From a virus (taxonomy: Duplodnaviria; Heunggongvirae; Uroviricota; Caudoviricetes), in the IMG/VR virus record IMGVR_UViG_2609460125_000009: 64,000 nt of DNA, one strand, 5' to 3'. The stretch's first letter is position 1, and every line of letters begins with the position of its first letter. This document shows, in pieces, positions 4,734-64,000 of the stretch. The notes beneath the pieces were generated by a model. The model saw only the letters and a program-made list of their open reading frames with translations, was not told the DNA's origin and searched no databases. The position numbers and the translations under genes were made by a program.

Positions 4734-4825
4734 CTATAGCCGCAGGGAAGAACCTGCATATCGCTCATGCACCTGATCATTATGCTTTGTAGCCGTTTTC
4801 TTATTGGTATTATTTACGCCATTGA

Positions 4826-4840: not shown

Positions 4841-4851
4841 ACGGAGTTGTG

Positions 4852-5163
4852 ATGAAAAAATCATTGGTTCTTGGTCTGGACAAAGACCAGAAGAGAAAAG
4901 AGAAGCCTGCGCTGGTTGCTCAATTAACTTTGCTGGACATCGTTGCCAATGGAACCTCTATTCGTCTGTTCCGTGAAACAGCGGTGTCTTTCGATAAAAA
5001 CACCTTTACTCGTTATGTAATGAATGTTCGTCGCCAGCGTGGAAAAGGCTGGATGGCATTTCAAAGAATGTGGCCGGAACATCAGCTCGAACTGGCTTTG
5101 ATGGAAGTTAACCGCGTGGCCCAGCAAGAAATTCAGAGAGCATCAGTGATGGCAATAGCCTGA
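4852..5163 (+). CDS. hypothetical early protein (basic)
   Basis: ORF with GGAG RBS. Confidence 0.45.
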   Translation: MKKSLVLGLDKDQKRKEKPALVAQLTLLDIVANGTSIRLFRETAVSFDKNTFTRYVMNVRRQRGKGWMAFQRMWPEHQLELALMEVNRVAQQEIQRASVMAIA

Positions 5164-5197
5164 TAATGTGCAAGTGGTAATTAGTCGACAGTACGAC

Positions 5198-5226
5198 AGC
5201 CCCGCCATCCTTACGGGGCTTTTTTG
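5198..5226 (+). terminator. rho-independent terminator
   Basis: AGCCCCG…CGGGGCT stem followed by TTTTTT. Confidence 0.7.
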
Positions 5227-5230
5227 TATT

Positions 5231-5246
5231 GTAAGTACATACTTAC
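5231..5246. promoter_or_regulatory. motif family 2 palindrome GTAAGTACATACTTAC
   Basis: Perfect inverted repeat ~45 bp upstream of the 5290 ORF. Confidence 0.45.
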
Positions 5247-5289
5247 GATCATAGAATATAAAAATAACCAATACACTACGGAGAGTGAA

Positions 5290-5685
5290 ATGACCGTTAA
5301 ACGCGAAAAACTGACAGTTGATGTTTACTATGCCTCTGAAACCGCCGAAGGTAAGAATGTGGCAAAAATCACCGTTGTTACGTACAACACCGAAACTGGT
5401 GCCGAAGTACAGGCCAGTACGATCGTGCGTAAAGGTGATGCCTCCGGCGGCGAGTACGCGACTCAATACCAGTCCATTCTCGATGCAACTGACCCGCTGC
5501 TGCTGAAAATCGAGAACTACTTCCGCCAGGTTGATGAAGAGGTGTTTGAAACCATGATGAATATGGTTAACACCGTATTCGCCTCCAGCCTGAACACCAG
5601 CACCACCTGGATTGGCCAGTACGGTCTGCGCATTACCTCTGGCATTCCTGCCGACACCTTAATCCCTGAAAGCGTATTCGCTTAA
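5290..5685 (+). CDS. hypothetical protein
   Basis: ORF with GGAGAG RBS. Confidence 0.45.
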   Translation: MTVKREKLTVDVYYASETAEGKNVAKITVVTYNTETGAEVQASTIVRKGDASGGEYATQYQSILDATDPLLLKIENYFRQVDEEVFETMMNMVNTVFASSLNTSTTWIGQYGLRITSGIPADTLIPESVFA

Positions 5686-5695
5686 TCCTCTTTAA

Positions 5696-5722
5696 ATGGC
5701 GCGTAAACCGCGCCATTTTATT
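5696..5722 (+). terminator. rho-independent terminator
   Basis: ATGGCGCG…CGCGCCAT stem followed by TTTTATT. Confidence 0.65.
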
Positions 5723-5731
5723 AAGCCCGAT

Positions 5732-5746
5732 AACAATTTGTTTTCT
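5732..5746. promoter_or_regulatory. motif family 1 site AACAATTTGTTTTC
   Basis: Palindrome upstream of the 5803 ORF. Confidence 0.45.
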
Positions 5747-5802
5747 GCCTTATCTGATTTGTGAAAATGATTTCACTGAAGCAACTTAATAAGGAAACCA
5801 TC

Positions 5803-6177
5803 ATGGGACTTGATATCTATATCGAGACACAGCCTAAAAACGATCTGAATAACGAGGCATCCAGAAAGCGGGTTGCTTACTTCCGTAAGTTCAATGCGCT
5901 CGTTGGGTGGATGGAGCGCAACGTAGGTGAAGTCGAAAATTGTGAGCTTTTAGAATTAACGATGAATGACATTTGTTTTCTGAAGGCTCATTTGATGCAC
6001 ATAAACGAAAGTAATTGCGAAGAGTACTTGCCTACCCGGGAAGGTTTTTTCTTCGGCAGTCAGGAGTACGATGAAGGTTACTGGCATGATGTGGGGGAGT
6101 TGAAAGAGCTTGTGGAAGATCTGATTAAGAACCACGACTTTCACAATAACAGACTGACCTTCTGCGCCTGGTGGTAA
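5803..6177 (+). CDS. hypothetical early protein
   Basis: ORF with AAGGAAACC RBS; the longer frame from 5761 would start at GTG. Confidence 0.45.
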   Translation: MGLDIYIETQPKNDLNNEASRKRVAYFRKFNALVGWMERNVGEVENCELLELTMNDICFLKAHLMHINESNCEEYLPTREGFFFGSQEYDEGYWHDVGELKELVEDLIKNHDFHNNRLTFCAWW

Positions 6178-6179
6178 AT

Positions 6180-6323
6180 ATGGGCGATTTCAAGAAACGC
6201 CTGAAGGAGAGAGCCGAGATGGTCAGAAAGCGAAACGCCTCTTCTGTCATCAGATACGCAAGGCAGTTTAGTCGCAACAACAAATCAGTTGAGGAAAAGA
6301 TCCTTAGCGTAATCGGGCGATAA
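6180..6323 (+). CDS. small basic hypothetical protein (47 aa)
   Basis: Short ORF starting 2 nt after the stop of the previous gene; not in the supplied track because <60 aa. Confidence 0.3.
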   Translation: MGDFKKRLKERAEMVRKRNASSVIRYARQFSRNNKSVEEKILSVIGR

Positions 6324-6330
6324 TTATTAA

Positions 6331-6350
6331 GGCCACCAGCATTGGTGGTC
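6331..6350 (+). terminator. terminator-like hairpin GGCCACCAGCATTGGTGGTC
   Basis: Stem-loop without a strong T-run; near-identical copy at 6800. Confidence 0.4.
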
Positions 6351-6478
6351 TTAAATGACTTTTAATAACCGAAGGTTAGTTTGAAACCTGGCTATCAACT
6401 TCCAGAACCTTTCTTGTGTATTCAGCCTGTATTAACTTCTTTTATGCCTTATCTACACTGCGATAATTACACCAACAA

Positions 6479-6493
6479 GAAAACAACATGTTT
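6479..6493. promoter_or_regulatory. motif family 1 site GAAAACAACATGTTT
   Basis: Preceded by the conserved CGATAATTACACCAACAA promoter-like block. Confidence 0.5.
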
Positions 6494-6506
6494 ACGCAGT
6501 GAGGAT

Positions 6507-6794
6507 ATGCTCATGACTGATTTCACCATTACCCCTAAAGCACAAAATGTATTCCTTGAATCATGGCTGGACTTGCCGGAAACAGAACAGCAAGAAATGG
6601 ATCATGTGGATTATGACGAGCAGGTAAGCACGCGATTCTTCCACTTTGAGGGATGCGTTTACGACATTGCCGACTTCATGCGAGATGACCGCTTCCCTGA
6701 ATGGCACGCAAGCTATCCACTAAACGCCTTTGCCATGCTGATGATCCGTGTGGATGATTCAGGGGATACCATCGACATCGGTCTGCTCCACTAA
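6507..6794 (+). CDS. hypothetical early protein (acidic)
   Basis: ORF with GAGGAT RBS; start at 6507 or 6513. Confidence 0.45.
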   Translation: MLMTDFTITPKAQNVFLESWLDLPETEQQEMDHVDYDEQVSTRFFHFEGCVYDIADFMRDDRFPEWHASYPLNAFAMLMIRVDDSGDTIDIGLLH

Positions 6795-6799
6795 AGATT

Positions 6800-6823
6800 A
6801 AGGCCACCAATGCTGGTGGCCTT
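6800..6823 (+). terminator. terminator-like hairpin AAGGCCACCAATGCTGGTGGCCTT
   Basis: Perfect stem; near-identical to the 6331 hairpin. Confidence 0.45.
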
Positions 6824-6963
6824 AAATGACCATCCTGTTTCCCGCAGGCTAAAAACACCAACCTCTTACCTCCAGGCAACCGACAAACCCACCTGTTCCC
6901 GTCCGGCTACCGCAACTTTCCACTTTGACGCCTTATTCGTACAACGATAATTAACACCAACAA

Positions 6964-6977
6964 GAAAACAATTTGTT
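6964..6977. promoter_or_regulatory. motif family 1 site GAAAACAATTTGTT
   Basis: Preceded by the CGATAATTAACACCAACAA block. Confidence 0.5.
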
Positions 6978-6998
6978 ATTTACGATAAGGAATTAATC

Positions 6999-7481
6999 AT
7001 GAATTTTATCGCTACTGTAAACGCACCCGCACATGGCAATATCGCTGTAACGTTCTCTGACATTGAAAAACGAGTACTTGGTGCATGGCGCGACAATGAG
7101 ACGGTAGAACTGTCAGCACAAGAAAAATGCATTATTGCACGCGACATCATTGGCAATCGTCGTTACTCGCGGGTATTTGAGAAAGCATATGTGGTAAATT
7201 CTGGATTCGGAACGTTCGTCTTTCCGGTGCGCTCCGGGCGATTCTGCCAGTCCAAGCTGATTGAGTTCGCTACGCAGATTTCTGTCTGGATTAAAACTCA
7301 ATCGTCGTTCAAATTTTCCGACGATGAAGCAGTATCGCAGGGGATGCGGATCGCCAACAATGCGATTAAATGCAAAAACATTACGTATACCGCTGGCGTT
7401 GATACATGGAAACTGTTTTGCGCTAACTTTATGCTGAATGTATACGCAAGCAACCGCATCCACATCCTTGATGGCGTGTAA
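6999..7481 (+). CDS. hypothetical protein
   Basis: 160-aa ORF with AAGGA RBS. Confidence 0.5.
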   Translation: MNFIATVNAPAHGNIAVTFSDIEKRVLGAWRDNETVELSAQEKCIIARDIIGNRRYSRVFEKAYVVNSGFGTFVFPVRSGRFCQSKLIEFATQISVWIKTQSSFKFSDDEAVSQGMRIANNAIKCKNITYTAGVDTWKLFCANFMLNVYASNRIHILDGV

Positions 7482-7494
7482 CTGAGAAGAGGGC

Positions 7495-7620
7495 CAGAAA
7501 CGGCCCTTTCTCTACAGCCACCAGCTGCCGCAGGGAAATTTTCAGAAACGGCGAGGAACGTATTCATGAGCCGACGGGAAACGGCCAGGATTTTTTCGGG
7601 AAACGGCTGCATTCGCCTTT
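7495..7620. repeat. second iteron-like array (AGAAACGGCC / GGGAAACGGC units)
   Basis: Four or more direct repeats of the same core as the 3895-4015 array. Confidence 0.55.
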
Positions 7621-7725
7621 ATATAGAAAAAACATCGGGAAGCTGGTGGAATCCAACCAGCGGTTGTCGGACAGGTGAGCGGGGAAAATCATGATGACTT
7701 TCGTCGCCTGAGACATCCAGATTTC

Positions 7726-7780
7726 TTTCGTAGCGTAATCACATATGTGATTAAGTGGTGTGATTATGTGAAAAATCACG
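7726..7780. promoter_or_regulatory. cluster of perfect palindromes (TAATCACATATGTGATTA; ATTATGTG-N12-CACATAAT)
   Basis: Inverted repeats in a convergent intergenic region. Confidence 0.4.
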
Positions 7781-8071
7781 CGCACATAATACGAGAGCGG
7801 ATACGGAACAAAACAAAATGCCGATCCGCGCCGACAATTAAACGCGGATCACATAGCAAGAATAAAAGCCAATGATTAACCATACACCATAACGCAATAT
7901 AACGCGATTTAAGCGCGTTAATGCGCTAAGTAATGGGTATGTACTGGTAAGGATATAAAAGCGCGTCTATGGCGTTATTTTGGCGCTTATTTTTATGTTG
8001 TTGGTGTGAGTCAAAGACAATAAAAAACGCGCTAATGATGGCGCGTTATGGTGGGAGTATTGGAAACGAAA

Positions 8072-8093
8072 AAAGCGCCCATAGTGGGCGCTC
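8072..8093 (-). terminator. hairpin AGCGCCCA-TAG-TGGGCGCT downstream of the 8098 gene
   Basis: Perfect 8-bp stem; identical copy at 8568. Confidence 0.45.
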
Positions 8094-8097
8094 GATT

Positions 8098-8328
8098 TTA
8101 TTTATGTAAACTGATTTCAAATCCCATTTCTACAAACGCTTTTAACATTAAAAATATATCAGCGTCATTCACGTCTGCTTTTTTTCGCTCCTGGTCGCTC
8201 AATAAGTCAATTTTGCGCGTCGTTTCATCTATAAGCTCGACTGCGCGCCCAGCGTAACCAGCGATCCCAGCGATGCGATTAACATAATATTCGTTATGGA
8301 CGTTAACGCCAGCGATAAGAACAAACAT
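8098..8328 (-). CDS. hypothetical protein (76 aa)
   Basis: ORF in an AT-rich operon. Confidence 0.4.
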   Translation of the reverse strand: MFVLIAGVNVHNEYYVNRIAGIAGYAGRAVELIDETTRKIDLLSDQERKKADVNDADIFLMLKAFVEMGFEISLHK

Positions 8329-8348
8329 GATTAAGCTCCTTAAAAAAA

Positions 8349-8552
8349 TTAAATAGAATTTTGAAGTTTTCCGATTAATGCGCTTAAACGTAAGTATTCA
8401 CGTTTGCGCTTGCAATCTCGCTTGCTGTTAAGCAAATCAGAAAACGTAAAATTTAATTGGTCGCGTTGCGCGATTAAATCATCGATTAATTCCAGTTTAT
8501 AAGCGCGATACTTTGCGCGATATTCCGCGCGGATCTTGTCATAGCTGACCAT
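8349..8552 (-). CDS. hypothetical basic protein (67 aa)
   Basis: Start moved to the internal ATG with an AAAGGAG RBS; the longer track ORF would run through the 8568 hairpin. Confidence 0.4.
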   Translation of the reverse strand: MVSYDKIRAEYRAKYRAYKLELIDDLIAQRDQLNFTFSDLLNSKRDCKRKREYLRLSALIGKLQNSI

Positions 8553-8567
8553 TTTCAAAGCTCCTTT

Positions 8568-8589
8568 AAAGCGCCCATAGTGGGCGCTT
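8568..8589 (-). terminator. hairpin identical to the 8072 copy
   Basis: AAAGCGCCCATAGTGGGCGCTT between the 8601 gene stop and the next RBS. Confidence 0.45.
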
Positions 8590-8600
8590 GATTCCATTAA

Positions 8601-9251
8601 TTACGCTTTGAAAGCATCAGCTAAATAATTGTAGAAATCATTTTTAATGAAGCGATATTGCTGAGTACCAGCTTTCGCACTCCCAGCTCCTTTGACTTTT
8701 TCAACAAGTCCAAGACGTTCGCAAAGATTGATCAACTGGTTGGCTTGAGTATAGCCAGCGTCCAATTTAATTTCACACGCTTTTTTAGCTTCATTCATTA
8801 AATCGAAAACAGCGCCATTGGTGAACGTGTCGATCTCGTCGTTAATCATATCGATTAAAGCGAATACACGAGATCCTGACATATCAGCGATGGAATAAAC
8901 GCATTTACCAGATTTAATTGATTTAACCAGATAAACCAGTTTTTCCAGAGAATAACTATTAGTCATTGCATCACGGAAAAATACTTCTGGCGCTTGTTTG
9001 CTTGCTTTAATCGCATAGTAGAAAACAGAGCATAATTTTTCGTCTTCTACTGCGTTTACGACGTTGTTGATGAAGTAAGCAAGTTTAGTGGTCGCAGCTT
9101 GCATATTTGCTTTGTCTGCTTTAGTGTGCGTACCATTTTTATAATGTTCGTTATATGTTTGAGTTGCCAGATCTGCTTTTTCGCGCAGCTCGTCGGATAC
9201 AATAGATGCAGCTTCAATGATGGACTTTTTAGAAATGATAATGTTAGCCAT
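8601..9251 (-). CDS. hypothetical protein (216 aa), no recognisable motif
   Basis: First gene of an AT-rich operon; long AT-rich promoter region upstream (9252-9500). Confidence 0.5.
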   Translation of the reverse strand: MANIIISKKSIIEAASIVSDELREKADLATQTYNEHYKNGTHTKADKANMQAATTKLAYFINNVVNAVEDEKLCSVFYYAIKASKQAPEVFFRDAMTNSYSLEKLVYLVKSIKSGKCVYSIADMSGSRVFALIDMINDEIDTFTNGAVFDLMNEAKKACEIKLDAGYTQANQLINLCERLGLVEKVKGAGSAKAGTQQYRFIKNDFYNYLADAFKA

Positions 9252-9502
9252 GATAATTTTTCCTTATGTAAATTTAAAATTTATTGTCGTTAGCGTCTTC
9301 GCTTTCGACGAGTTCAATTATCGATACGCGAAAAAAGATTGCAAGTGTTTTTTTTAAATTTTTTGCAGGGATGAAAGTCCTAGAAATAAAAGCGAGATCG
9401 TCGAAGGTGTTCCCTAAATAAATAATCAATTCGGGCTTTTAACCTTATATATATTTAGGTTATTTGATTTGTAGATATAAAGAAGTGATGTGAAAAATAA
9501 TA

Positions 9503-9524
9503 ACCGGACTTAGCCGGTTATTAA
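9503..9524 (-). terminator. hairpin AATAACCGG…CCGGTTATT
   Basis: Stem-loop downstream of the 9535 gene. Confidence 0.45.
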
Positions 9525-9534
9525 CCTTATAGAT

Positions 9535-9843
9535 TTATTGAACAGACTCTACAGCCTTACGATTGGTGTCAAATAGCGCATCAACGAACTGTGCCGATGA
9601 CTCGCTAGATTCGCAATCCAACATTGCCCGTTCTTCATTTGCCACTTTCTTACACAGTTCCACATTCTCACCTATCGCTTTTCCTGCTTTTACGGCTGCC
9701 GAAAATTGATACATGCAAACTGATACATTCTGAGACGTTGAGCACACGTCATTCATCAGCGACTGAATGACAGGCTTATAGTCCATTGCATTTGCCGCAA
9801 CTGAGCAAAGTAAAAATAATGGTGGTAACAATATCGATTTCAT
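9535..9843 (-). CDS. secreted cysteine-rich small protein
   Basis: N-terminal hydrophobic signal-like segment (MKSILLPPLFLLCSVAANA); six Cys residues. Confidence 0.5.
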   Translation of the reverse strand: MKSILLPPLFLLCSVAANAMDYKPVIQSLMNDVCSTSQNVSVCMYQFSAAVKAGKAIGENVELCKKVANEERAMLDCESSESSAQFVDALFDTNRKAVESVQ

Positions 9844-9846
9844 AAC

Positions 9847-10371
9847 TCAAAAAGGCAAAATTCGTTCAACCCAATCGAACAAAACAACTATTTTTCTACC
9901 GTTCTCGACACGTAGTGTAACCTGACAAGCATCTGCGCCTGCTGACACCCCCTCAATTTCACGGCCATCCGCCATGTACACCCTTATAGATTTGTTTGCT
10001 TTGTAGGCTTGGTTGCAAATTGCAAAAAAATCGCGGCGTGATGGCCGATTATCGACATAATCAGGGTGAACTGTTAATCGACCTTTGAAATCGTGAGCGA
10101 TACTGTCAACCACACCTGATTCAATTGTACTAATGCGTTCAAGTGGGAGCCTTATACGATTTTCTTTGTCAAAAGGGGCTGGGCAAAGGTCAACTTTGTT
10201 GCGAGATGGCATGAGGCCATAAACGTACATGCAAAACGCCTGACCATCTTCGAGAGTGACCCTTACAGGAATTTGTTCTCTGCGCCAGAACATCAGTAGT
10301 TTTTCAACGTTAGTGTAATCTCGCGGCAAGAGTTCAGCTTGGATACCGTAGGTAATATCTTTGGTTGTCAT
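9847..10371 (-). CDS. hypothetical protein
   Basis: Start moved to the internal ATG (MTTKDITYG…) to avoid overlap with the upstream lipoprotein gene. Confidence 0.4.
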   Translation of the reverse strand: MTTKDITYGIQAELLPRDYTNVEKLLMFWRREQIPVRVTLEDGQAFCMYVYGLMPSRNKVDLCPAPFDKENRIRLPLERISTIESGVVDSIAHDFKGRLTVHPDYVDNRPSRRDFFAICNQAYKANKSIRVYMADGREIEGVSAGADACQVTLRVENGRKIVVLFDWVERILPF

Positions 10372-10375
10372 GTCA

Positions 10376-10798
10376 TCACAGAGTTGTTGGCAGAATGTCG
10401 ATGTTACCAGAATTGCTGGTGAACACCCTGAACGCTTTTGTGTCTCCATTCTTCAGAGTCGTTTCTCGCTCTTGACGAGCGGGGTTTAGAGCACATAAAC
10501 CTGCACCTTCAAGAGATGCACCCACAATTAATTCTCCGGCATTTAAATGGAAAGTCGCTTTTTCGCCTGTAGCCAGTTTTGCGACAGTTTCGCCATTGAT
10601 GAAAATGGAAGCATCACATCCAGCTCCTACAAAACCTGTGTCTCTCATTACCACCAACGTAGCTGGCGCTGCGCTTTGATACTTGAACACTTTGGCCTGC
10701 GGTGCTGGTTTGGCGTCATGGATTGATATTGGACGTGATTGGCACGCGGTAAGCATCAACACTGGTAACGTTAGTAGAGGGAGAAGCGAGTATTTCAT
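10376..10798 (-). CDS. putative lipoprotein
   Basis: Signal peptide with lipobox (…VLMLTAC); start at MKYSLL. Confidence 0.5.
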   Translation of the reverse strand: MKYSLLPLLTLPVLMLTACQSRPISIHDAKPAPQAKVFKYQSAAPATLVVMRDTGFVGAGCDASIFINGETVAKLATGEKATFHLNAGELIVGASLEGAGLCALNPARQERETTLKNGDTKAFRVFTSNSGNIDILPTTL

Positions 10799-10866
10799 GT
10801 TAGTTTTAGAACAGAAAGTGAACAGTATGGGAGACTTCATCTTTGTCTCCCTAATTGATAGCGTGA

Positions 10867-11145
10867 TTATTTTAATCTGCTTAATAGCGTTTCGAGATCT
10901 TCCTTTGTCATATTAGAGTTCTCATAGATACGCATGATTTTCTCACGAGTCTTAGCGGAAGCCCCGACAGAAGATATAACCTTGTCAAAGTCGGCCATTG
11001 TCAATTGTTCCAGAATGGTATTAATGACTTCAGCCTTAGACATTTTGATATTTTTTTCTTTTAGTTTCACTTGAAACTTTCCAAGTTTGTCATTGGCCTT
11101 ATCAGACAATGCTACCTGACAGTAAGTTGTTTTCTTTTCACTCAT
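10867..11145 (-). CDS. hypothetical small protein (92 aa)
   Basis: ORF immediately downstream of the helicase gene. Confidence 0.4.
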   Translation of the reverse strand: MSEKKTTYCQVALSDKANDKLGKFQVKLKEKNIKMSKAEVINTILEQLTMADFDKVISSVGASAKTREKIMRIYENSNMTKEDLETLLSRLK

Positions 11146-11147
11146 AA

Positions 11148-12707
11148 CTAATCTCGTTTCAGAACTCCAAAATCGAATGCTCCATCAATAGGCAATACAC
11201 CTTCTGCAAAGCCAGGTGTGGTGTCGATGATGTGTTTTCGCTCATAAGAGTGAGACAACAGGTATTTGTTGCTAATGTCAATGAAATCAGTGATAAAACA
11301 CACGTTTGCCTGATTTTTTTTGGCTCGTAAGCCACGACCGACACGTTGTCTCATTTCAACTTCTGCTTTCCCACCACCAGCAAGAATGACCGCACCAACG
11401 CTTGGCACATCAACACCAACATCCAGAATAGTCGAGCCTATTAAAACATCTATTTCACCAGACGCTAAACTGTTCAGCTTTGCTTGCCTTGTCGTCTGGT
11501 TAGATTCCCCATAGATGAAATCAACTCTAAGACCTGACTCCTTCATCATCTCCATCAGGATTTGCCCGTGGCGTTTAAGACGAACCAGAGTCATGCAGTT
11601 GAGTGAATGTTGCTTATAAAGCAATGCCTCGCGCACTATGGCCTCGTTACGTCCCAAATTATACACGATCCCCAACTGATAAGCCTTTTGGTAGGCGGTG
11701 CTCATACCAACTCTAAAATTGAGATGTTTGTTGGCAAGTTCGGCCTTGATTCTGGCCTCGTCTGGCTTGTAGGCAACTTTATGATAAAGGAAGTACGGCT
11801 TTGCCAGAATGCCTCGATCAATCAGGTACTTTTCTGTGACTTTAATTTCAATTCGCCCGGCCACCGCCATCAGGCGCATGTTGGCTTCCGTCGAATCCTT
11901 CATGAACGGCGTGGCTGTAAGCGCCAGACGATAGTCTGCGTTCACACATAATCTGGCGATGTCATAGAAATTTGAGCCTGAAGACTCATGCGCCTCTTCC
12001 AGAATAAGAAGAGAGACACTTGAAAGGAAGCGTTTCACCAACTCCCGACGTTTGAGGTGGTAGCTTTTCTTATCTGGTGTTGCATCGCGTGGTGGTTCTT
12101 CGAGGAAACTTGCAAGAGTTTGAACTGTAGCGACGTTGATATGTCGTGATACCTGGAACTCACCCGAGCCAATGACTCCAACCTTTTGGTCTTTTAACCA
12201 CGGTTCGCCATTTTTGGCGCGGTAGTCGATGGATCTCTGGAAGTTTTCGGCCATTTGAAACATCAGAACAGAGCGGGTTGTTAAAAATAATGTCATTCGA
12301 CCGATACGTGCAGCTGCTTTGCAGGCAACATTAGATTTCCCGCCACCAGTAGCGATCTGCGCAATCATCATTCCCTCTCGAACCAGTGTTTCCACAGTCT
12401 GATCCTGATACGCATAATCAGGATTGTATGGGAATGGGTTAACCGCCGGATTTGGTTTACCAAGCGCCGGGGCTTTGTCTTTGCGGATATGAACACATTT
12501 GATGCCCGCCTTGTTCAAGTTCGCCGCTACAGGCTTGGCAAAGCCAGCAGGGAACGAGTTTTTACTCCAGTTGAACATCGTGCTTGTGCCCTTCCAGTCG
12601 CCAGTCTCGACTTCGTAGCTCAACATTTGCTGCACCAGTTGCTTTACCTTGTCATCTGCGCCAGAAATAAGCGCATTTACTGCGTTAGATACAATCCGAA
12701 CAGTCAT
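11148..12707 (-). CDS. superfamily-2 DEAD/DEAH-box helicase
   Basis: Motif I ATGGGKS, motif II LILEEAHE, motif III TATP, motif VI QRVGRGLR. Confidence 0.75.
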   Translation of the reverse strand: MTVRIVSNAVNALISGADDKVKQLVQQMLSYEVETGDWKGTSTMFNWSKNSFPAGFAKPVAANLNKAGIKCVHIRKDKAPALGKPNPAVNPFPYNPDYAYQDQTVETLVREGMMIAQIATGGGKSNVACKAAARIGRMTLFLTTRSVLMFQMAENFQRSIDYRAKNGEPWLKDQKVGVIGSGEFQVSRHINVATVQTLASFLEEPPRDATPDKKSYHLKRRELVKRFLSSVSLLILEEAHESSGSNFYDIARLCVNADYRLALTATPFMKDSTEANMRLMAVAGRIEIKVTEKYLIDRGILAKPYFLYHKVAYKPDEARIKAELANKHLNFRVGMSTAYQKAYQLGIVYNLGRNEAIVREALLYKQHSLNCMTLVRLKRHGQILMEMMKESGLRVDFIYGESNQTTRQAKLNSLASGEIDVLIGSTILDVGVDVPSVGAVILAGGGKAEVEMRQRVGRGLRAKKNQANVCFITDFIDISNKYLLSHSYERKHIIDTTPGFAEGVLPIDGAFDFGVLKRD

Positions 12708-54883: not shown

Positions 54884-55082
54884 GCGGGAGAAGGAAACGC
54901 TTCATGAAATCAGTAAGTGGCCGGAGTTCCCTGAGTACTGGAAGCCTAAAACGCGGGCTAAGTTAGAGCGGTTAGGGTTGGTTGCAAACGTTTCTGAAAC
55001 GTGGTGTTCGGCCAACTACCAGTTAACTGATAAAGGGAAAGTATTGCTACAGCAATTAGTAGAATCAGGAGCGTTAAAATGA
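54867..55082 (+). CDS. hypothetical small protein
   Basis: 71-aa ORF overlapping its neighbours. Confidence 0.4.
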   Translation: MIVLSKREKETLHEISKWPEFPEYWKPKTRAKLERLGLVANVSETWCSANYQLTDKGKVLLQQLVESGALK

Positions 55083-55231
55083 TTCCATACATCTCATTAG
55101 CTTTTATGGGTGGCTTCCTTATCGGCTTCGGCATCTGTCGTGATTTAATTAAGCAGGAACTTAAAACCAAAACACTGTGCATCGGAAAGCGTGTGTATCG
55201 GGTAGTTCATGAAACAAAGGTTAGAAAATGA
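55079..55231 (+). CDS. small membrane protein (50 aa)
   Basis: ATGA overlap; hydrophobic N-terminus. Confidence 0.3.
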   Translation: MIPYISLAFMGGFLIGFGICRDLIKQELKTKTLCIGKRVYRVVHETKVRK

Positions 55232-55560: not shown

Positions 55561-56294
55561 AGATGACTTTGTTTTCGTTGAGACGCGACTGTTTGAACTT
55601 AAATACAAGTGCAAACGAAGAAGTCTATCTGGCAGTAGCCTAATAAGCCAAACACCAGCGAGGTCAGTTTCCAGCCTCGTTACCGAAATGGGACACACTG
55701 AGCGAGTGTGATTGCAGAACGCAGGAGGGAACATTCATGTTCCCTCCGATGAAGTAACAGAATGGGCGGTTGGTATATTTTCAACTCCATATGACTCCCG
55801 GATTCTTAGCCACTGACCGCCCATCCTGTTACGTCATTTTGTTCAATTATGTCGTTTATACTGGGTTAAAAAGCGGCGACGTAGCCCGGCTGGTATGGTT
55901 AGCCAGCACACAACGTTGAGGCCATTACATTTTTATCAATTCTAAGGTTCTATTCACAGAGATACCGGCGAGCGTTGATATGTAACATGTTGGGCAAACA
56001 TTCAATCGGAGTAGTGGCCTCAACGTTGTGAAGACAGGATTGTTGTGTAGGTTTAACCACTGTTGCCATTGGTGCCTGTTTTCACAACAAATGATTCCAT
56101 ACATCACATTGTATAAATTACAAAGTAGGTGCTGTCCTCAGAAACATCATCTACTTAAAGATTTTGCCTTCTATTGAGCGAAGTCGAAAACGTCTGGCAC
56201 TAACGGAAAGTGCAAGTAGCGGTGTGTTTCCTGGCAGAAACTAACACCGCCGCGATTGGCACTGTTGAGTAATAAATACTGGCAGTGCTGAATT

Positions 56295-56369
56295 GATGGT
56301 GTAGCTCAGCGGTAGAGCAGTTGGCTGTTAACCAACTGGTCGGTGGTTCGAATCCACCCACCATCGCCA
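56295..56369 (+). tRNA. tRNA-Asn (anticodon GTT)
   Basis: Hand-folded cloverleaf: acceptor GATGGTG/CACCATC, anticodon loop CTGTTAA, T-loop TTCGAAT, 3' CCA encoded. Confidence 0.8.
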
Positions 56370-56374
56370 ATTTA

Positions 56375-56461
56375 GGGGAGTTAGTCCGTAGAGGTAGCGG
56401 GGTAGACTGTAAATCTACTGTCATTGCGACTCGGGTGGTTCGACTCCATCACTCCCCACCA
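56375..56461 (+). tRNA. tRNA-Tyr (anticodon GTA), long variable arm
   Basis: Acceptor GGGGAGT/ACTCCCC, anticodon stem-loop GTAGA-CTGTAAA-TCTAC, long variable arm; D-arm pairing is atypical. Confidence 0.6.
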
Positions 56462-56465
56462 AATT

Positions 56466-56541
56466 GCCGGTTTAGCTCAGTTGGTAGAGCGCCTGCCTTG
56501 TAAGCAGGATGTCAGCGGTTCGATCCCGTTAACCGGCACCA
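56466..56541 (+). tRNA. tRNA-Thr (anticodon TGT)
   Basis: Acceptor GCCGGTT/AACCGGC, D-arm GCTC-AGTTGGTA-GAGC, anticodon loop CTTGTAA, T-loop TTCGATC. Confidence 0.8.
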
Positions 56542-56904
56542 ACACAACAGGTAAGAGCATTGGGCGAATCGGCGATACTGACCCACAAGCCCGTAAATCG
56601 ATAGAGTCAGACCAGTGCTCTTACCGTTGTGAGGAAGTGCAGCTCTTTGAAGCAACCAGAAGATAAGCATCTGGCTTCACAACACAACGATAAGATCATT
56701 ACGGTTAATCGTCGTTCATGTGCACAATGACTGGTCGAAAGGTAGTGATCTTACCGTTGTGGTGGATTCGCAGACTGATGCGATAGCTTTCTTGGATGTT
56801 AGGGAAATGCGGCCGCAAATCTTCCCTTTCGCGAGCGGTGATCGTCCGTAGTCCTAATTGGCTGCACCGTATGCCGGAGATTCAGTACCGGCCACCACAA
56901 CGGC

Positions 56905-56991
56905 CGGAGAGTAGGGAGCATGGTGCTCAAGCGGTCTTGAAAACCGTCCCATTGCGCAAGCGATGATGGTTCGATTCCATTACTCTCCGCC
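56905..56991 (+). tRNA. tRNA-Ser (anticodon TGA), long variable arm
   Basis: Acceptor GGAGAGT/ACTCTCC, anticodon loop CTTGAAA, T-loop TTCGATT; D-arm atypical. Confidence 0.55.
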
Positions 56992-57147
56992 AGACACAGC
57001 GTTGAGCGGTTTGGCCTTTTAATCACCCAGATTAAGACTCCGCTAACATAAACCAGACCGCTCAACGCTGTGATAGACAATTACGGCAGACGTTCTTAAC
57101 CATAGCTTGCTAACATCCTAGCAACACTTTTTTTCAGCGCAAAATTC

Positions 57148-57170
57148 AAAGGGGCTTCGGCCCCTTTTTT
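57148..57170 (+). terminator. rho-independent terminator
   Basis: AAAGGGGC…GCCCCTTT stem followed by TTTT. Confidence 0.7.
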
Positions 57171-57213
57171 GCAACTGAAAGAGTCAAGTCTACGAACTTT
57201 GTAGGAAGAAATA

Positions 57214-57564
57214 ATGACCAGCAAAGATAACACACCACTAAAAGTCACCCCTGAACACATTGAACAACTCATTCAAAGTGAACATTATTTCACTGCATAT
57301 GATGCCAGCCACGGGGATAACTTCATCTCCGTTTACAATTCAAAAACAGATATCGACAAATGTCATGAGTCGTTAAAACTCTTAACGTTCTGCGTTATGG
57401 TTCTCAAAAATGGATATACCGTAACGGGAAAATCTGCGTGCGTAAGACCAGAAATCTTCAACTTTGATGTTGGTCGCGAGTACGCTCGAAAAGATGCTAT
57501 CGATCAAATCTGGCCCCTGGAAGGCTATCTCCTGAAGCAAAAGTGGCATGAGGCAAAGCAATGA
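57214..57564 (+). CDS. hypothetical protein
   Basis: 116-aa ORF with RBS; overlaps the glutaredoxin start. Confidence 0.45.
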   Translation: MTSKDNTPLKVTPEHIEQLIQSEHYFTAYDASHGDNFISVYNSKTDIDKCHESLKLLTFCVMVLKNGYTVTGKSACVRPEIFNFDVGREYARKDAIDQIWPLEGYLLKQKWHEAKQ

Positions 57565-57806
57565 CGATCACTATCTACGGACGAGATAACTGCTCATTCT
57601 GCAAACGTGCGGTCGAGCTGGCGAAGCAACTAAAGGGACATGGCTACGGTGATTATGAGTACATCGACATCACCACTGCCGGTATCGACAAGGAAAAACT
57701 AAGTGAAATTGTTGGTAAACCGGTAGAGACTATCCCCCAAGTGCTGATCGATGGCCAACCGATTGGCGGATACACAGAACTGGCTGCATACGTCAGCACC
57801 CTCTGA
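57561..57806 (+). CDS. glutaredoxin / NrdH-like redoxin
   Basis: CSFC active site and TIPQV/GG motifs of the thioredoxin fold. Confidence 0.75.
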   Translation: MTITIYGRDNCSFCKRAVELAKQLKGHGYGDYEYIDITTAGIDKEKLSEIVGKPVETIPQVLIDGQPIGGYTELAAYVSTL

Positions 57807-57812
57807 TTTTAA

Positions 57813-57835
57813 CGGCTCACAGGAGCCGTTTTTAT
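57813..57835 (+). terminator. rho-independent terminator
   Basis: ACGGCTC…GAGCCGT stem followed by TTTTT. Confidence 0.65.
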
Positions 57836-58016
57836 TCCCACCAAACTCACTCCCGTTTCCCTTAAAATTCAAAAAACAACGTCAAAATGATTCCATACCT
57901 ACTATGTATGGAATCATTAGTAAAAATGAGTTACTTTTACTCTTGATCCTATAAGAATCTATGCCTAATATACTGTTTACTTATACAGTACATCGGCGTA
58001 ACTCGGTGATTGTCAT

Positions 58017-59120
58017 ATGAAAAATAGCTTTGACAGAGCACGCGCTGCGGAGAACACCTCAAAAGAGGCGATTGAGTATCTCGAAAGAGCATCTCAAATG
58101 CAGGCCGTTATGATCTCCCAGGTCAGCAATGACATGAGATTCTCGGACGCATTCATGTTATTCACTCGCTTATCTCTGCTGATAACAAGACGTCGGCCAG
58201 AGATCGCTGTTCATTGTATTTTGATACATGTTTTGCCGCACATTGCCGATGTAAAAGTAAGTGATATTAATAGGTTCATGGTGAACCAACTGGTCAACCC
58301 ACTAATACTGGATGGCAAAATTGTTATGGGTCGCCGCGTTTTCTCTCTGATGAAGCAGTTCCTCAGCTGGTGCGCCTTCCAGGGGATGATCGACGTGTCA
58401 CCGTTAAACGATATGTCACTTAACAAAGTTGCCGGTGGCGCAAAGCCCACACCTCGCGAGCGGAAGCTGACCGACGCAGAGGTATGGGTGTTCTGGAATA
58501 TATGGGACTACTTCAATGTGTGTGCTGGTACAAAATGGGCGGCCAGGCTATGTCTTGTATCCGCAAGACGACCTGACGAAGTACTGCGGGCTAAAAAAAG
58601 TGAGTTCAATCTTAAGCGTGGGGTTTGGAATCAAGGCAAGAGGAACAAATCTGCCCGTGAGCATTCTCTGCCTTTAAGCTCATTAATGCGCACTTGTATT
58701 GAAGAGTTGTTCGAATATGGTAAAGACAGCCAGTGGCTCGTGCCTTCGAATAAAAAAATCGGGAAAGACCTTCCTATGTCTAAAGTGGCAATAGCCCAGG
58801 CATTACGTCGTATTCTGGAACGACCAGAACTGATGGAGCTTGAGCCATTTACACCCCGAGATTTGCGCCGTACTGCGCGTAGTTACTTCCCAGCATTAGG
58901 CATAAGCCAGGAGGTATCACGTAAAATCATGAACCACAGTCTTGAGGGGATAGATCGGGTCTACGACCGGCACGATTATATGGACGAGATGCGAGACGCC
59001 TTAGAAAGTTTCTCGACGTACATCGCATCAATCGTAGAGCAACCGGATTTAGACGAAATTGACCACAAATTTAAGGGAGATCGTCTATCAACAGAGCTTA
59101 TTCGTGTAAATTTTTCATAG
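58017..59120 (+). CDS. tyrosine recombinase / integrase
   Basis: C-terminal catalytic pattern RDLRRTARS…H…VYDRH; N-terminal start uncertain. Confidence 0.6.
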   Translation: MKNSFDRARAAENTSKEAIEYLERASQMQAVMISQVSNDMRFSDAFMLFTRLSLLITRRRPEIAVHCILIHVLPHIADVKVSDINRFMVNQLVNPLILDGKIVMGRRVFSLMKQFLSWCAFQGMIDVSPLNDMSLNKVAGGAKPTPRERKLTDAEVWVFWNIWDYFNVCAGTKWAARLCLVSARRPDEVLRAKKSEFNLKRGVWNQGKRNKSAREHSLPLSSLMRTCIEELFEYGKDSQWLVPSNKKIGKDLPMSKVAIAQALRRILERPELMELEPFTPRDLRRTARSYFPALGISQEVSRKIMNHSLEGIDRVYDRHDYMDEMRDALESFSTYIASIVEQPDLDEIDHKFKGDRLSTELIRVNFS

Positions 59121-59501
59121 AGACTTTATGGCCTCAACAACCTTTTGTGATGCGCCTTTCTCTTTACCGAATCGCTCGTTATATGCAGCAAGAACCTGTT
59201 TTTCGTCCTCGTTAAGAGGAGCAGTGCCTTCTTTGTATAAAAATGCTGCGAGTTCGGGTTGGCGTTCTTCCAGCACCATCATCATAAGACGACTTGGCTC
59301 AATACCCAGTGCCAGCGCCAGCGGACGAACCTTATCGATAGGCAAAGGAATTTTGCCGCTTTTAATTAAAGAAAGGTTGTTGGCGTTTTTATACCCAATT
59401 GTTTTGGCTATCTGGGCCTGGCTCATAGGTGAGGATTCAATCAACCCTGCGATAAAAGCAGCGTAGCGACTTTCTATAAATTCAATCTTGTTATCAGACA
59501 T
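59115..59501 (-). CDS. XRE-family HTH transcriptional repressor
   Basis: HTH (…SQAQIAKTIGYKNANNLSLIKSG…); divergent from a small plus-strand ORF. Confidence 0.65.
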   Translation of the reverse strand: MSDNKIEFIESRYAAFIAGLIESSPMSQAQIAKTIGYKNANNLSLIKSGKIPLPIDKVRPLALALGIEPSRLMMMVLEERQPELAAFLYKEGTAPLNEDEKQVLAAYNERFGKEKGASQKVVEAIKSL

Positions 59502-59752
59502 GGTTACAACCTTTGCGCGTTCAATTCTCTCTGGTAAGTGCTTACCGATATTACATCAAAGGTTAGGGTTGTAAAGCTATTATCATTTTTTTCGATAGGC
59601 ACTTAAAAGACCGGTTAAAGGCCATTGCACGGAGAAAAATTAGCCCAAAATAGGTAAGAAAATCAACTTGCATATGATATGAATGTATTCAGTATTGATA
59701 CAAATTTTAGTAGTATTCCTTACCATAGTATAAGTTAGAATGGATTGATTGA

Positions 59753-59965
59753 ATGAACACCACTATTTCCAGCCTAATCGCTCTTGAGATCGGACACGTA
59801 CAGAAATTAGCTGATGAGTGTGTAGCTGACATCCTCACCGATCTACCGAATGAGCAGATTCAGGTTGGTGTGAATGACACAACTGGATTTATATTCGAAC
59901 TTAACAACAAACGCTTCACGCTTCTCAATACCGGCTCCGGGTCTTTAGCCGTCAGAATCTGTTAA
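59753..59965 (+). CDS. hypothetical small protein
   Basis: 70-aa ORF divergent from the XRE gene. Confidence 0.35.
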   Translation: MNTTISSLIALEIGHVQKLADECVADILTDLPNEQIQVGVNDTTGFIFELNNKRFTLLNTGSGSLAVRIC

Positions 59966-60032
59966 CCCCTCTTCTCCCTGCGCGAATGGCTTAGTTCCCT
60001 GTTCGCGCAGTGCTACATTAAACACACTAGTA

Positions 60033-60046
60033 AATAATTTGTTTTC
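60033..60046. promoter_or_regulatory. motif family 1 half-site AATAATTTGTTTTC
   Basis: Upstream of the CobT-like gene. Confidence 0.4.
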
Positions 60047-60063
60047 ATAACAAAGGATTAGCC

Positions 60064-62172
60064 ATGTCTAAAAAACGTTCCATCAAAGAGGTTCAGGACT
60101 TCCGTGACAGTGTAAAACGAGTAGTCGCTCTCCTTTCAGGTAAAAACATCCCTGTTGCAGAACGAGGGGACGACGCTTATGTACGCTATAACGATGATGG
60201 AGAGCCAATTCTCGTAAACATCCCATCAATCCCGGATAACGCAACACCGGCATTGATGAATGCTGTGCGCGGATTTCTCGATCATGAGGTTGCTCACATT
60301 TTGTTTACCGATATTCGTGTGTCCAACAAAATGAGAGAAAAAGGACGCGTTCCTTCCTGGTCGCTATGGAATGCCTTAGAAGACGTGTTCATCGAGCGAA
60401 AAATGGGTCAGGTCTTTAACGGAACAAGACGTAATCTGATGGCAACTCAGCGCCTTATAATCGAAAAAGTCTTTAAACCAAAGGCTTCAGAGGCTATTGC
60501 TTATTGTGGCAAAGATCAGCGCGCGCTTTTTCTAAACTTCTTTCTCTGTCCGGTTGTAAGAGCCTGGGATGGCCAAGCACCGTTCGTAGATTTCATGGAT
60601 GAATATTGGCCTGTCATTGAGAAACCAATTTCATTATTAAAAGAACATGGTATCGATGTGGCCGTGCGTAACATGTCTTGCACCGAGGATTGTGTAAAGG
60701 TGGCTGCGACCATAGCTAAGATCCTCAAAGACACTGAAAGTGAAAGCAAAGGTAAGGAGTCAGCTCCGGGAAAAACTTCCGATCCTTCAGACGCTGACCA
60801 GACGGATGCCTCTGGAGAAAACAATGAAGACAACGAAGATCATGAGACACCCTCAGCGTTAGATAATCACAAATCTATCAAATCAGAATCACACAGTAAG
60901 CACAAACATGATAATAACGACGGTGATGATTCAGATAATTCTGAATCATCAGAAACAATATTCGATGATACAGAAAATGATAAAGAGGTATCAGATTCTG
61001 ATGCTTCTGATAACGCGGTGTCAGAATCATTTACCGCTGACCACGAAAAAAGAAAAACGACAGAAGACGGCTCTTCAGATATCCCAACTCCGTCAAAAAT
61101 GAGTCTGGAAGAGGCTTTAGAGGAGCTGGATAGCATAGAAGATGAAGTCGGAGGCATGACAGAAGATGCTCTATCCGAAACGATTAAAAGCGAGTTAACA
61201 GAAACCTCGAAAAGCGAATACAGGCCATACAATCGCTCATACGACTTCATCGGCTCGATTGATCAGGCAGAAGCCCATATCAAACGGCTTATTAAAACAT
61301 TCTCCGATATTGATTTAGGAGGATATCCAATCAGCCGCTATCGCATCGTTCCTGAAGGCAACCAGCTCTTCGACAAATATATTGAAAAGCATCTTTCGTC
61401 AGGTGTTTCGTCGACGCTGGCAAAAGACCTGGAGCGAGCAATAGCAAGCAGAAACAGAGTTCAGTTTATACCGGGCCAGCGTCGGGGGCGCATTCATGGT
61501 TCTAGTATCTACAGATTAGCAATGAATGATGATCGCGTGTTTCGTAAAAAAGAAGAATCTAAAGCCGTTAACGCCTGTGTTCAGCAAGTGATTGATTTAT
61601 CAGGTTCAATGAGTGGTATAACGATACAATTGGCTCTTGCAAGTGCATATACCATCGCCGATGCCCTTGATCGAATAAATGTTCCCAACATTATCACCGG
61701 CTTCACTACATTTGGTAGTCATATGGCGGCAGGAGAACTTAAGGCTGTCAAGTATGAGTTCTCTCGCTTTGAATCTTTAATGCTACCTATCATCAAAAAT
61801 TGGAATGAAAAGGTAAATTCTCGCGAAGTTCGCTCACGTATGGGGTGCGTAGGCTACACATTCCCACTTCTTAATAACGTGGATGGTGAAAGCATAGCCA
61901 GCCTTGCATCGTTATTTTCCGGTCGCATGGAGGACAGGAAGATCATGCTTGTTCTGAGTGATGGCGCGCCGTGGGCTGTTGGGAGAGGTTTTGACGCTCA
62001 TTTGCGTTCGGTTGCGAAGCAAATTGAAACGCAGACTGACATTGATTTGATGGCAATTGGCATCATGACTGACGCACCGGAGAGATTATACTCAAATCAT
62101 GCCCTGGTAACGAGCGTTGATAGTCTTGGTTCATCTGTAGTTACTGAACTATCTCGTATCATTTTAAAGTGA
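60064..62172 (+). CDS. CobT-like protein with C-terminal vWA domain
   Basis: Long acidic linker; MIDAS-like DLSGSMSG in the C-terminal domain. Confidence 0.6.
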   Translation: MSKKRSIKEVQDFRDSVKRVVALLSGKNIPVAERGDDAYVRYNDDGEPILVNIPSIPDNATPALMNAVRGFLDHEVAHILFTDIRVSNKMREKGRVPSWSLWNALEDVFIERKMGQVFNGTRRNLMATQRLIIEKVFKPKASEAIAYCGKDQRALFLNFFLCPVVRAWDGQAPFVDFMDEYWPVIEKPISLLKEHGIDVAVRNMSCTEDCVKVAATIAKILKDTESESKGKESAPGKTSDPSDADQTDASGENNEDNEDHETPSALDNHKSIKSESHSKHKHDNNDGDDSDNSESSETIFDDTENDKEVSDSDASDNAVSESFTADHEKRKTTEDGSSDIPTPSKMSLEEALEELDSIEDEVGGMTEDALSETIKSELTETSKSEYRPYNRSYDFIGSIDQAEAHIKRLIKTFSDIDLGGYPISRYRIVPEGNQLFDKYIEKHLSSGVSSTLAKDLERAIASRNRVQFIPGQRRGRIHGSSIYRLAMNDDRVFRKKEESKAVNACVQQVIDLSGSMSGITIQLALASAYTIADALDRINVPNIITGFTTFGSHMAAGELKAVKYEFSRFESLMLPIIKNWNEKVNSREVRSRMGCVGYTFPLLNNVDGESIASLASLFSGRMEDRKIMLVLSDGAPWAVGRGFDAHLRSVAKQIETQTDIDLMAIGIMTDAPERLYSNHALVTSVDSLGSSVVTELSRIILK

Positions 62173-63683: not shown

Positions 63684-64000
63684 ATGAAGGCACTGATGGT
63701 TCGAACTGACTTCTCACTTGGGGAGTCGGCTTTAAAAGCAGAAAACGCGGTGAAGATTGCCAGAGAAGCTGGCTACACCGCTGTAATTTCAGCAGATAGC
63801 ATGAATATTGCGAGCGTTATTCCACTACAACGTGCCGCTGGTGACGACATGGCGGTTATTTGTGGTGTGAAACTAAACATCGTTGATGATCCCACATACG
63901 AGCACCGGGCTAAACTTGCTAAAGAGTCTAAGGGATGTATGGAATCATTGGAGCGAGGACGTAACTACTCGTTTACCGCTCTAATTAAAAATGAGAAAGG
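63684..64000 (+). CDS. PHP-domain DNA polymerase alpha-like protein, N-terminal part (3' end outside window)
   Basis: ATG with AAGGTAAAAA RBS; frame open to the window end; N-terminus resembles the DnaE PHP start but lacks the first His pair. Confidence 0.4.
   Translation, partial: MKALMVRTDFSLGESALKAENAVKIAREAGYTAVISADSMNIASVIPLQRAAGDDMAVICGVKLNIVDDPTYEHRAKLAKESKGCMESLERGRNYSFTALIKNEK

Follow-up and report, generated by a model that had tools for sequence, protein, structure and literature searches.

A candidate palindromic site and a LexA box beside the tyrosine recombinase gene of an SSU5/pHCM2-type phage-plasmid suggest a plasmid-multimer resolvase

We analyzed the recombinase region (positions 58017 to 59965) of a 64,000-nucleotide stretch of viral DNA (Caudoviricetes; IMG/VR record IMGVR_UViG_2609460125_000009), hereafter the window, together with related loci. 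The region contains a tyrosine recombinase gene that we call int (58017-59120, + strand, 367 aa), a gene for an XRE-type helix-turn-helix (HTH) regulator on the opposite strand (59115-59501, - strand, 128 aa) and a conserved open reading frame (ORF) of 70 aa (59753-59965, + strand). As read in the original prediction, made from this DNA alone, int and the XRE gene are convergent and end together, with a 6-bp overlap in which the int TCA-TAG is the reverse complement of the XRE CTA-TGA. The overlap or abutment of these 3' ends is kept across deep divergence. Three further features had not been remarked in that prediction: a palindromic candidate site upstream of int, a LexA box at the int promoter, and single copies of the palindrome arm at a distance on both sides. 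Loci for comparison came from tblastn against plasmids, from viral contigs scanned with a pattern and from looking up the contigs that encode homologues; a scan of genome contigs gave 5 loci.

The int product matches the Pfam family Phage_integrase (PF00589, E 2.9e-10), with a Phage_int_M match below the family cut-off, and most records annotate it as 'integrase'. The catalytic region noticed in the original prediction is present: among 21 homologues and the outgroups, R185, K211, R284 and Y316 are invariant and H307 nearly so. The exception is the His-II position, which is an Arg (R281) invariant in the homologues, so that the motif reads FTPRDLRRT where five of six outgroups have FTPHDLRRT. 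These outgroups, at 25-32% identity (alignment A3), are P4-type integrases with the arm-binding domain PF13356; this domain aligns to gaps in Int and is recorded for no close family member. Since PDB sequence searches with the Int protein or a 21-sequence profile gave no useful match to a solved structure (XerH being a weak sequence match), we placed Int by fold comparison. The AlphaFold2 (AF2) model (pLDDT 84, pTM 0.73) has a helical extension of ~57 residues followed by core-binding and catalytic domains. Foldseek gave a probability of 1.00 against lambda Int, Tn1549 Int, XerA, XerH, XerD and IntI, the top matches being the core-binding and catalytic domains of lambda Int (E 2e-6), Tn1549 Int and Xer, while Cre ranked 34th or lower (E at least 0.036, about 0.04-0.5). 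No excisionase-like neighbour was found in Pfam and PHROG scans, and int is the only tyrosine recombinase of the element. By alignment and model, Int is an active-looking recombinase of the lambda/P4 branch that has lost the apparatus for arm-dependent, directional integration.

The candidate core site lies at 57886-57918. Its 33 bp consist of perfect inverted arms of 13 bp, AATGATTCCATAC and GTATGGAATCATT, around the asymmetric 7-bp spacer CTACTAT, with 98 bp between the end of the site and the int ATG downstream. The palindrome occurs once in the window, with 0 copies expected, and has a DNA hairpin z-score of -6.6. In Escherichia phage Cyrano (pLF82), which is 98.6% identical over window positions 57000-61000, the copy by int is the sole full site, the remaining 46 kb of the genome having been checked. 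A cognate palindrome stands next to the int homologue in ~140 loci, that is, at every locus with int inside the fetched DNA, with one full site per locus and one per replicon. All 20 annotated relatives share the architecture, with the cognate palindrome upstream of int. The pattern scan of viral contigs added 114 stretches which, with the earlier loci, gave 122 site-int pairs. The distance from site to int ranges from 45 to 143 bp over the 20 annotated loci and the 122 pairs, and from 45 to 101 bp to the ATG in the 122 pairs.

Arms and spacer behave differently among these loci. The 122 pairs have 15 different 7-bp spacers, all asymmetric, and relatives with identical arms carry CTACTAT, CTATTAA, TTGGTAG, CTTACAG or TATGTAA. 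The arms are TGATTCCATAC wherever Int shares at least 56% identity with the window protein. In these, the outermost base alone varies, on both arms together (GTG...CAC, TTG...CAA), and this 13th position is always complementary (A/T in 110 pairs, G/C in 10 and T/A in 2). In a clade with ~47% Int identity the arms are TGACTCCAGAC, with the two changed positions mirrored in both arms and the spacer still of 7 bp. This clade comprises megaplasmids of 0.4-0.6 Mb from Pantoea, Rahnella and Erwinia, and phage-plasmids from Xenorhabdus and Providencia. On the megaplasmids, int and its site sit amid unrelated metabolic genes, with no phage genes and no XRE gene. We considered Panto/pox as the identity of the Pantoea homologues and rejected it, as Panto/pox is Cre-type, rox-like and unrelated. 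In a 33.8-kb plasmid of Photorhabdus asymbiotica (CP177137, our locus L141), a trio of int, an XRE-like gene and a small ORF adjoins ParA-like and Rep3 genes, and the palindrome has arms TGACTCCAGAT and TGATTCCAGAC, intermediate between the two arm classes. Because the arms are invariant, the spacer is free, arms and Int clade co-vary, and the palindrome persists beside int despite changed neighbours, we read it as the core site of the recombinase and not as a terminator or an operator of another factor.

The spacer also changes orientation. Its centre is inverted in situ, TTACA versus TGTAA, between two loci with identical flanks (L003 and L025), and likewise between L072 and L068; reverse-complement spacer pairs, in both orientations relative to int, occur in four spacer families. 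The cause may be template switching at the palindrome or some event related to Int. Only a site that recombines with its own copies could tolerate such flips without harm, which argues against a fixed partner elsewhere. Exchange at the site might leave left and right flanks of different origin; a crude test for such chimeras, with some loci mis-oriented, found none. In two large cointegrate plasmids, the junctions do not fall at the site. One possibly relevant paper aside, the searchable literature gave us no account of the site, of the LexA box or of the single arms.

Besides the full site, the window has three single-arm copies, each being AATGATTCCATAC followed by ATC. The first (55078-55093, + strand) lies at the junction of two small ORFs; the second (56090-56105, + strand) is intergenic, ~190 bp upstream of the tRNA-Asn gene; and the third (63934-63949, - strand) lies inside the 5' part of dnaE. 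A degenerate copy is also present inside int (58623-58634, - strand). Exact arm 12-mers number five in the window against 0.4 expected, all within 9 kb, and there are none elsewhere in Cyrano. As no second arm matches at the 7-bp spacing (checked by eye), we regard the three copies as true half-sites. They point inward to int from both sides, from 1.8-6 kb away, are syntenic in all SSU5-like relatives and form islands of identity inside diverged flanks. Their 13th base tracks that of the local palindrome, being G in 6/6 G-type lineages and A in 127 A-type cases. From this pattern, the single arms look like extra Int-binding sites.

Between the palindrome and int we identified a putative sigma-70 promoter (57943-57971, + strand), with TTGATC at 57943-57948, a 17-nt spacer and TAATAT at 57966-57971. 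It was read directly from the sequence, since its score of 8/12 kept it from being called by a consensus scan, and it is conserved in SSU5, pHCM2, pMT1 and the Klebsiella relatives. A perfect LexA (SOS) box, TACTGTTTACTTATACAGTA (57971-57990, TACTGT-N8-ACAGTA), overlaps the -10 hexamer and the expected int transcription start, and is the only perfect match in the 64-kb window (pattern CTGT-N8-ACAG; consensus TACTG(TA)5CAGTA). The pattern is found in 106 of the 122 site-int loci and is missing from shorter-leader and class II lineages. Cyrano has two perfect LexA boxes in its genome, one of them at int. The other falls outside the window (L017 42776-42795, record 89275-89294), upstream of CYRAN_98, a 129-aa S24-peptidase-like gene.

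Published RNA-seq of LF82 allows these features to be set beside expression. The log2 values of the Cyrano int homologue were 5.6 in lysogeny broth (LB), then 7.9, 6.1, 8.9 and 10.3 (macrophage, 6 h), a ~26-fold induction in macrophages, which the authors consider an SOS-inducing environment. CYRAN_98 ran in parallel (7.2, 9.7, 9.1, 11.3 and 12.2), and most phage genes remained low. These data are consistent with SOS induction of int; LexA would be predicted to bind the box. In LB, int is already ~5-fold above background, so that some Int would be available in the lysogen.

Regarding the regulator, the XRE product has an HTH_19 match below the cut-off (E 7.8e-4) and a match to the PHROG family phrog_8, 'transcriptional regulator' (E 1.3e-11). 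Its AF2 model (pLDDT 74) is all-helical, with a five-helix HTH of the XRE/Cro type followed by further helices. The HTH superposes on those of C.BclI, C.AhdI, HigA and 434 repressor with a root-mean-square deviation of 1.5-2.5 A over 61-68 columns, with weak Foldseek E values of 0.015-0.054. Neither Pfam nor the model gave a match to a Peptidase_S24 domain. XRE homologues were found on contigs of phage-plasmid size only, and their recognition helix NNLSLIKSGK is nearly invariant. The AT-rich region between the XRE gene and the 70-aa ORF is as originally described: positions 59502-59752 have 33.9% GC against a window mean of 46.5%, among the lowest 0.6% of 251-bp windows. A promoter scan placed the XRE promoter there (59575-59548, - strand; TTTACA, 16 nt, TAATAT), with the palindrome GGTAAGTGCTTACC (59533-59546) at the expected transcription start. 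Eight diverged relatives keep the promoter hexamers and the palindrome but not the remainder of the spacer, which makes GGTAAGTnCTTACC a candidate operator for autoregulation by XRE.

Similar 14-mers (consensus about AGTAAGTAnTTACT) occur at 12756, 18047, 25045, 43828, 48576, 55528 and 59533, and are enriched, the window having 38 matches where 10 are expected. Of the 11 two-strand hits, seven lie between genes, often just upstream of gene starts (p = 6e-5, with the caveat of AT-rich composition), and these dispersed palindromes may be operators. A terminator-like hairpin inside the XRE gene (59341-59357) is not clearly conserved, and we make no claim for it.

The 70-aa ORF, divergent from the XRE gene, belongs to phrog_2627 (E 8.8e-41); it has no Pfam match, and no recognisable Cro-like HTH appeared in the Pfam and PHROG scans. 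It is syntenic in all SSU5-like relatives and opens a rightward block, continued by CobT-like, AAA_5 and dnaE genes. In a Xenorhabdus relative (L138 10481-12802), a LAGLIDADG_3 domain lies within the AAA_5 (CobS-like) gene and is suggestive of an intein or of an inserted homing endonuclease. In the published LF82 work, CYRAN_45, the Cyrano XRE homologue and the authors' putative master repressor, is 10-fold above background in the lysogen, and the homologue of the 70-aa ORF rises ~88-fold from LB to macrophage at 6 h. A role of XRE as lysogeny repressor is plausible, and so is the proposed immunity switch of XRE and the 70-aa ORF, for which the conserved promoter and palindrome and the published lysogen expression speak.

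The element in the window is an extrachromosomal phage-plasmid of the SSU5/pHCM2 type. Besides Cyrano, Klebsiella phage-plasmids of ~110 kb are related to it. Positions 1-12000 of the window, including the metG part, are colinear with ~110-kb E. coli plasmids (coverage 96-98%), and chromosomal matches to this stretch cover the query only in part, at 90-95% identity; the latter we take to be the host's own metG. The original prediction had placed a chromosomal junction at metG, and this did not hold: the 3' part of metG at 82-972 is the phage-plasmid's own gene, and Cyrano has its own full-length gene for methionyl-tRNA synthetase, CYRAN_100, which adjoins a MinD/ParA-like gene and is ~90-95% identical to chromosomal metG. 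The window also holds an ORF (9847-10449, - strand) with a Pfam Flag1_repress match (phase-1 flagellin repressor, FljA-like; E 1.7e-82), an unexpected cargo for an E. coli phage-plasmid.

Among 5,426 complete E. coli genomes, 252 contain the int-XRE region, with 255 occurrences in all; every one is on a plasmid and none is chromosomal. By tblastn, Int is encoded on 1,081 plasmid records, 989 of them non-mobilizable, including Yersinia pestis pMT1 (86% identity), Salmonella Typhi pHCM2 (84.5%) and plasmids from Klebsiella, Enterobacter and Cronobacter. A close homologue is also carried by a contig of ~0.9 Mb. The original prediction had left open an integration site elsewhere and had called for an attachment core near int that matches a host gene 3' end; these searches supported neither. 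A 36-nt query with the site matched only the same 252 genomes, on plasmids only, and no chromosomal match was reported at E <= 10 in the 5,426 genomes, a search that by our estimate would catch exact chromosomal matches of ~20 nt or more. The tRNA block noted beside the recombinase does exist, as four genes (Asn, Tyr, Thr, Ser) at 56295-56992, ~1 kb upstream of int, and an Rfam scan gave tRNAs and nothing else. It is phage cargo, however, and not an attachment target. The tRNA-Tyr gene (56375-56461), between tRNA-Asn and tRNA-Thr, is missing from the otherwise near-identical Cyrano. Published work describes Cyrano as a virion-forming plasmid of ~5.5 copies, induced 39-fold by ciprofloxacin. 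According to the searchable literature, the persistent genes of the SSU5 supergroup include tyrosine recombinases, and dimer resolution by phage-plasmids is mentioned as a possibility.

Taken together, we propose, with a probability of roughly 60%, that Int and the palindrome form a plasmid-multimer resolvase, comparable to Cre/loxP but of another lineage, with a promoter covered by a LexA box and with XRE as the probable repressor of the element. This assignment is based on the plasmid-only life style, the simple, symmetric and single site, the lack of a host partner site, of an arm-binding domain and of an excisionase, and the presence of the same module on megaplasmids and on the Photorhabdus plasmid. 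The original prediction had offered dimer resolution as one option, and the plasmid-only location, the co-variation of site and int, and the missing arm-binding domain favour it. In such a system, two Int monomers would bind the two identical arms of the palindrome, and two occupied sites on a plasmid dimer would synapse. Strand exchange across the 7-bp asymmetric spacer would then delete the DNA between the directly repeated sites, and the resulting monomers would be segregated by the partition system. With the int start under the LexA box, Int should be low in lysogens and more abundant after DNA damage, at which point RecA would drive the formation of more multimers and lytic induction would also increase. 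XRE, as probable lysogeny repressor, appears to regulate itself via the palindrome at its own start, facing the rightward early block. We infer binding and catalysis by Int, dimer resolution and the targets of the repressor. Resolution of multimers, the most likely role, would be an ordinary function with some new details.

Several observations weigh against this proposal. The His-II residue is Arg and not His, although one outgroup with an arm-binding domain, which may or may not be active, also has Arg there. The palindrome could also, or instead, be an operator. Control by LexA is odd for a housekeeping resolvase, even with int ~5-fold above background in LB, and since class II elements have no LexA box, SOS control is not intrinsic to the module. 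Finally, dimer resolution has no need of the conserved single arms (55078, 56090 and 63949), which the proposal leaves without explanation.

One could argue that Int does both things: it would resolve multimers at the palindrome and, once induced by SOS, bind the three single arms. Those arms point inward from both sides of a block that spans the tRNA genes, int, XRE, cobT/S and dnaE, and either through them or through antisense transcription across XRE, DNA damage would be coupled to the lytic switch. We regard this dual function as unlikely, though it would, if true, be an induction route without self-cleavage of the repressor or a classical antirepressor.

An improbable variant makes Int mainly an SOS-induced part of the lytic switch, acting as a DNA-binding protein at the palindrome and single arms or through an antisense int transcript that lowers XRE, with recombination secondary or lost. 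The LexA box on the int promoter, the 3' ends of int and XRE that conservedly overlap or abut, and the syntenic single arms that co-vary with the palindrome all fit this idea, as does the ciprofloxacin induction of Cyrano despite only two LexA boxes and an XRE protein with no self-cleaving domain. On the other hand, pure DNA binding does not require catalytic residues, which here are invariant; the gene and site are paired on megaplasmids with neither phage nor XRE genes, and class II phage-plasmids lack the LexA box. In addition, Cyrano virions were not detected in macrophages, and XRE RNA in LF82 is not lowered when int RNA is high (the strandedness of the data is not known), so that the antisense route is a minority reading.

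Int and its site might instead serve mainly to circularise the incoming linear, terminally redundant genome after infection, a task that would complement dimer resolution. Circularising the incoming phage genome is the other role of Cre in P1, and the present element produces virions as well. Yet in a freshly infected cell without DNA damage, LexA would keep int repressed, and the module is also found on megaplasmids that are not phages. We consider circularisation as the main role to be distinctly improbable.

Capture of cargo in the manner of an integron, in which a recombinase under SOS control would insert circular cargo at the site next to it, is suggested by the stretch between the glutaredoxin gene and the palindrome (57807-57885 in the window). 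Integron intI is likewise a tyrosine recombinase gene under LexA control next to its own site, attI. Comparison of L001, L002, L004, L010-L014, L132 and L138 showed this stretch to be a hot spot whose cargo differs from lineage to lineage. The window has no cargo there; the stretch holds the highly expressed CYRAN_43 in Cyrano (723-fold above background), a YafO toxin and a colicin-immunity gene in Klebsiella, the whole caf1R-caf1M-caf1A-caf1 F1 capsule operon in Y. pestis pMT1, and elsewhere HEPN/Toprim, Phd/RelE or a DNase colicin with its immunity gene. Nevertheless, exactly one full site is found at each of the ~140 loci. No second site bounds the cargo at the other loci at up to one mismatch, and none does so in Cyrano even in degenerate form, where the best candidate has 10/24 mismatches, the commonest best score in shuffled sequence. 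Besides, many lineages keep an A-rich motif between the cargo and the site, which places the cargo junctions outside the spacer. These results make cargo capture by Int very unlikely.

That Int is a true integrase, with the palindrome as the core of an attP and a chromosomal attB used in some hosts or conditions, is hardly credible: the 'integrase' annotation, the P4-type nearest relatives and the best fold match to lambda Int favour it, but they stand against the 255 purely plasmid-borne copies, the lack of a reported chromosomal match to the site in the 5,426 E. coli genomes, the missing arm-binding domain and excisionase-like neighbour, arms perfectly symmetrical like those of simple sites, cointegrates joined elsewhere, and a published survey that treats the rare chromosomal remnants of phage-plasmids as independent of integrases.

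Phage-plasmids of the SSU5, pHCM2, pMT1 and pKpn types are common in clinical Enterobacterales and include the virulence plasmid pMT1 of Y. pestis as well as carriers of extended-spectrum beta-lactamase (ESBL) and KPC genes. The label 'integrase' implies integration, and a cognate site with a maintenance role would correct this annotation. The assignment of the site also gives a testable handle on the stability of phage-plasmids and their response to SOS. The two natural specificity classes, with TGATTCCATAC and TGACTCCAGAC arms and a 7-bp spacer, could be used as orthogonal recombination tools, and a cargo hot spot abutting the site, which in pMT1 holds the F1 capsule operon, is of evolutionary interest.

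In order to contextualize these results, we compared the locus with known systems. For the regulatory half, the closest parallel is with the CI/Cro regions of lambdoid phages, where an XRE/Cro-type HTH repressor is likewise divergent from early genes across an AT-rich region and has a palindrome at its own promoter. The present locus departs from those regions in that the XRE protein lacks an S24 autocleavage domain, we found no set of repeated operators at the rightward promoter, and the partner ORF has no recognisable Cro-like HTH. Stl of Staphylococcus aureus pathogenicity islands (SaPI) is among the best fold matches of XRE (weak, E 5e-3), within a group of repressors that combine an HTH with a helical domain.

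Regarding the recombinase, integron IntI/attI shares the LexA box at the promoter, for which SOS control has been published in the case of intI, as well as a site just upstream of the gene and adjoining variable accessory genes. The Int locus differs in having neither attC-like partner sites nor a cassette array, and Int itself is nearer to the P4 type, with Vibrio IntI (2a3v) a mid-ranking fold match. In F ResD/rfsF, Rsd/crs of the Salmonella virulence plasmid, XerS/difSL and XerH/difH, one recombinase gene lies beside its own site on the replicon that it resolves. We liken Int to these by arrangement. Its site differs from theirs in arms and spacer, and the match to XerH is weak in both sequence and fold.

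The nearest relatives of Int are the P4/CP4-57-type (lambda-like) integrases, with which it shares PF00589, PF22022, the motifs FTP(H/R)DLRRT and VYDRHDY, and the best folds. The crossover region of lambda is 7 bp, and the 7-bp spacer fits an assignment of Int to the lambda/P4 branch. Those integrases have the PF13356 arm-binding domain, which in Int is replaced by the helical extension, and for Int we found no attB, tRNA target, excisionase or integrated copy. Int descends from P4/lambda-type integrases while failing their defining features (arm-binding domain, attB and integrated state).

Cre/loxP of P1, with its Cre-type relatives Dre/rox and Panto/pox, resembles the system in another way, with a phage-plasmid as host and a simple recombinase without an arm-binding domain. 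Sites of the Cre/loxP type also have perfect inverted arms of 13 bp and a short asymmetric spacer, lie beside the recombinase gene and occur once per replicon, and the stated role of Cre is the resolution of head-to-tail multimers. Int is not a member of the Cre family proper, though: no sequence homology to Cre was seen in the PDB searches, and the fold match is much weaker than that to lambda Int. Its site has a spacer of 7 bp instead of 8, so that published screens requiring 13-8-13 sites would not find it, and the LexA-controlled promoter, the Arg at His-II and the extra single arms set Int further apart from the Cre-type systems that it resembles in arrangement.

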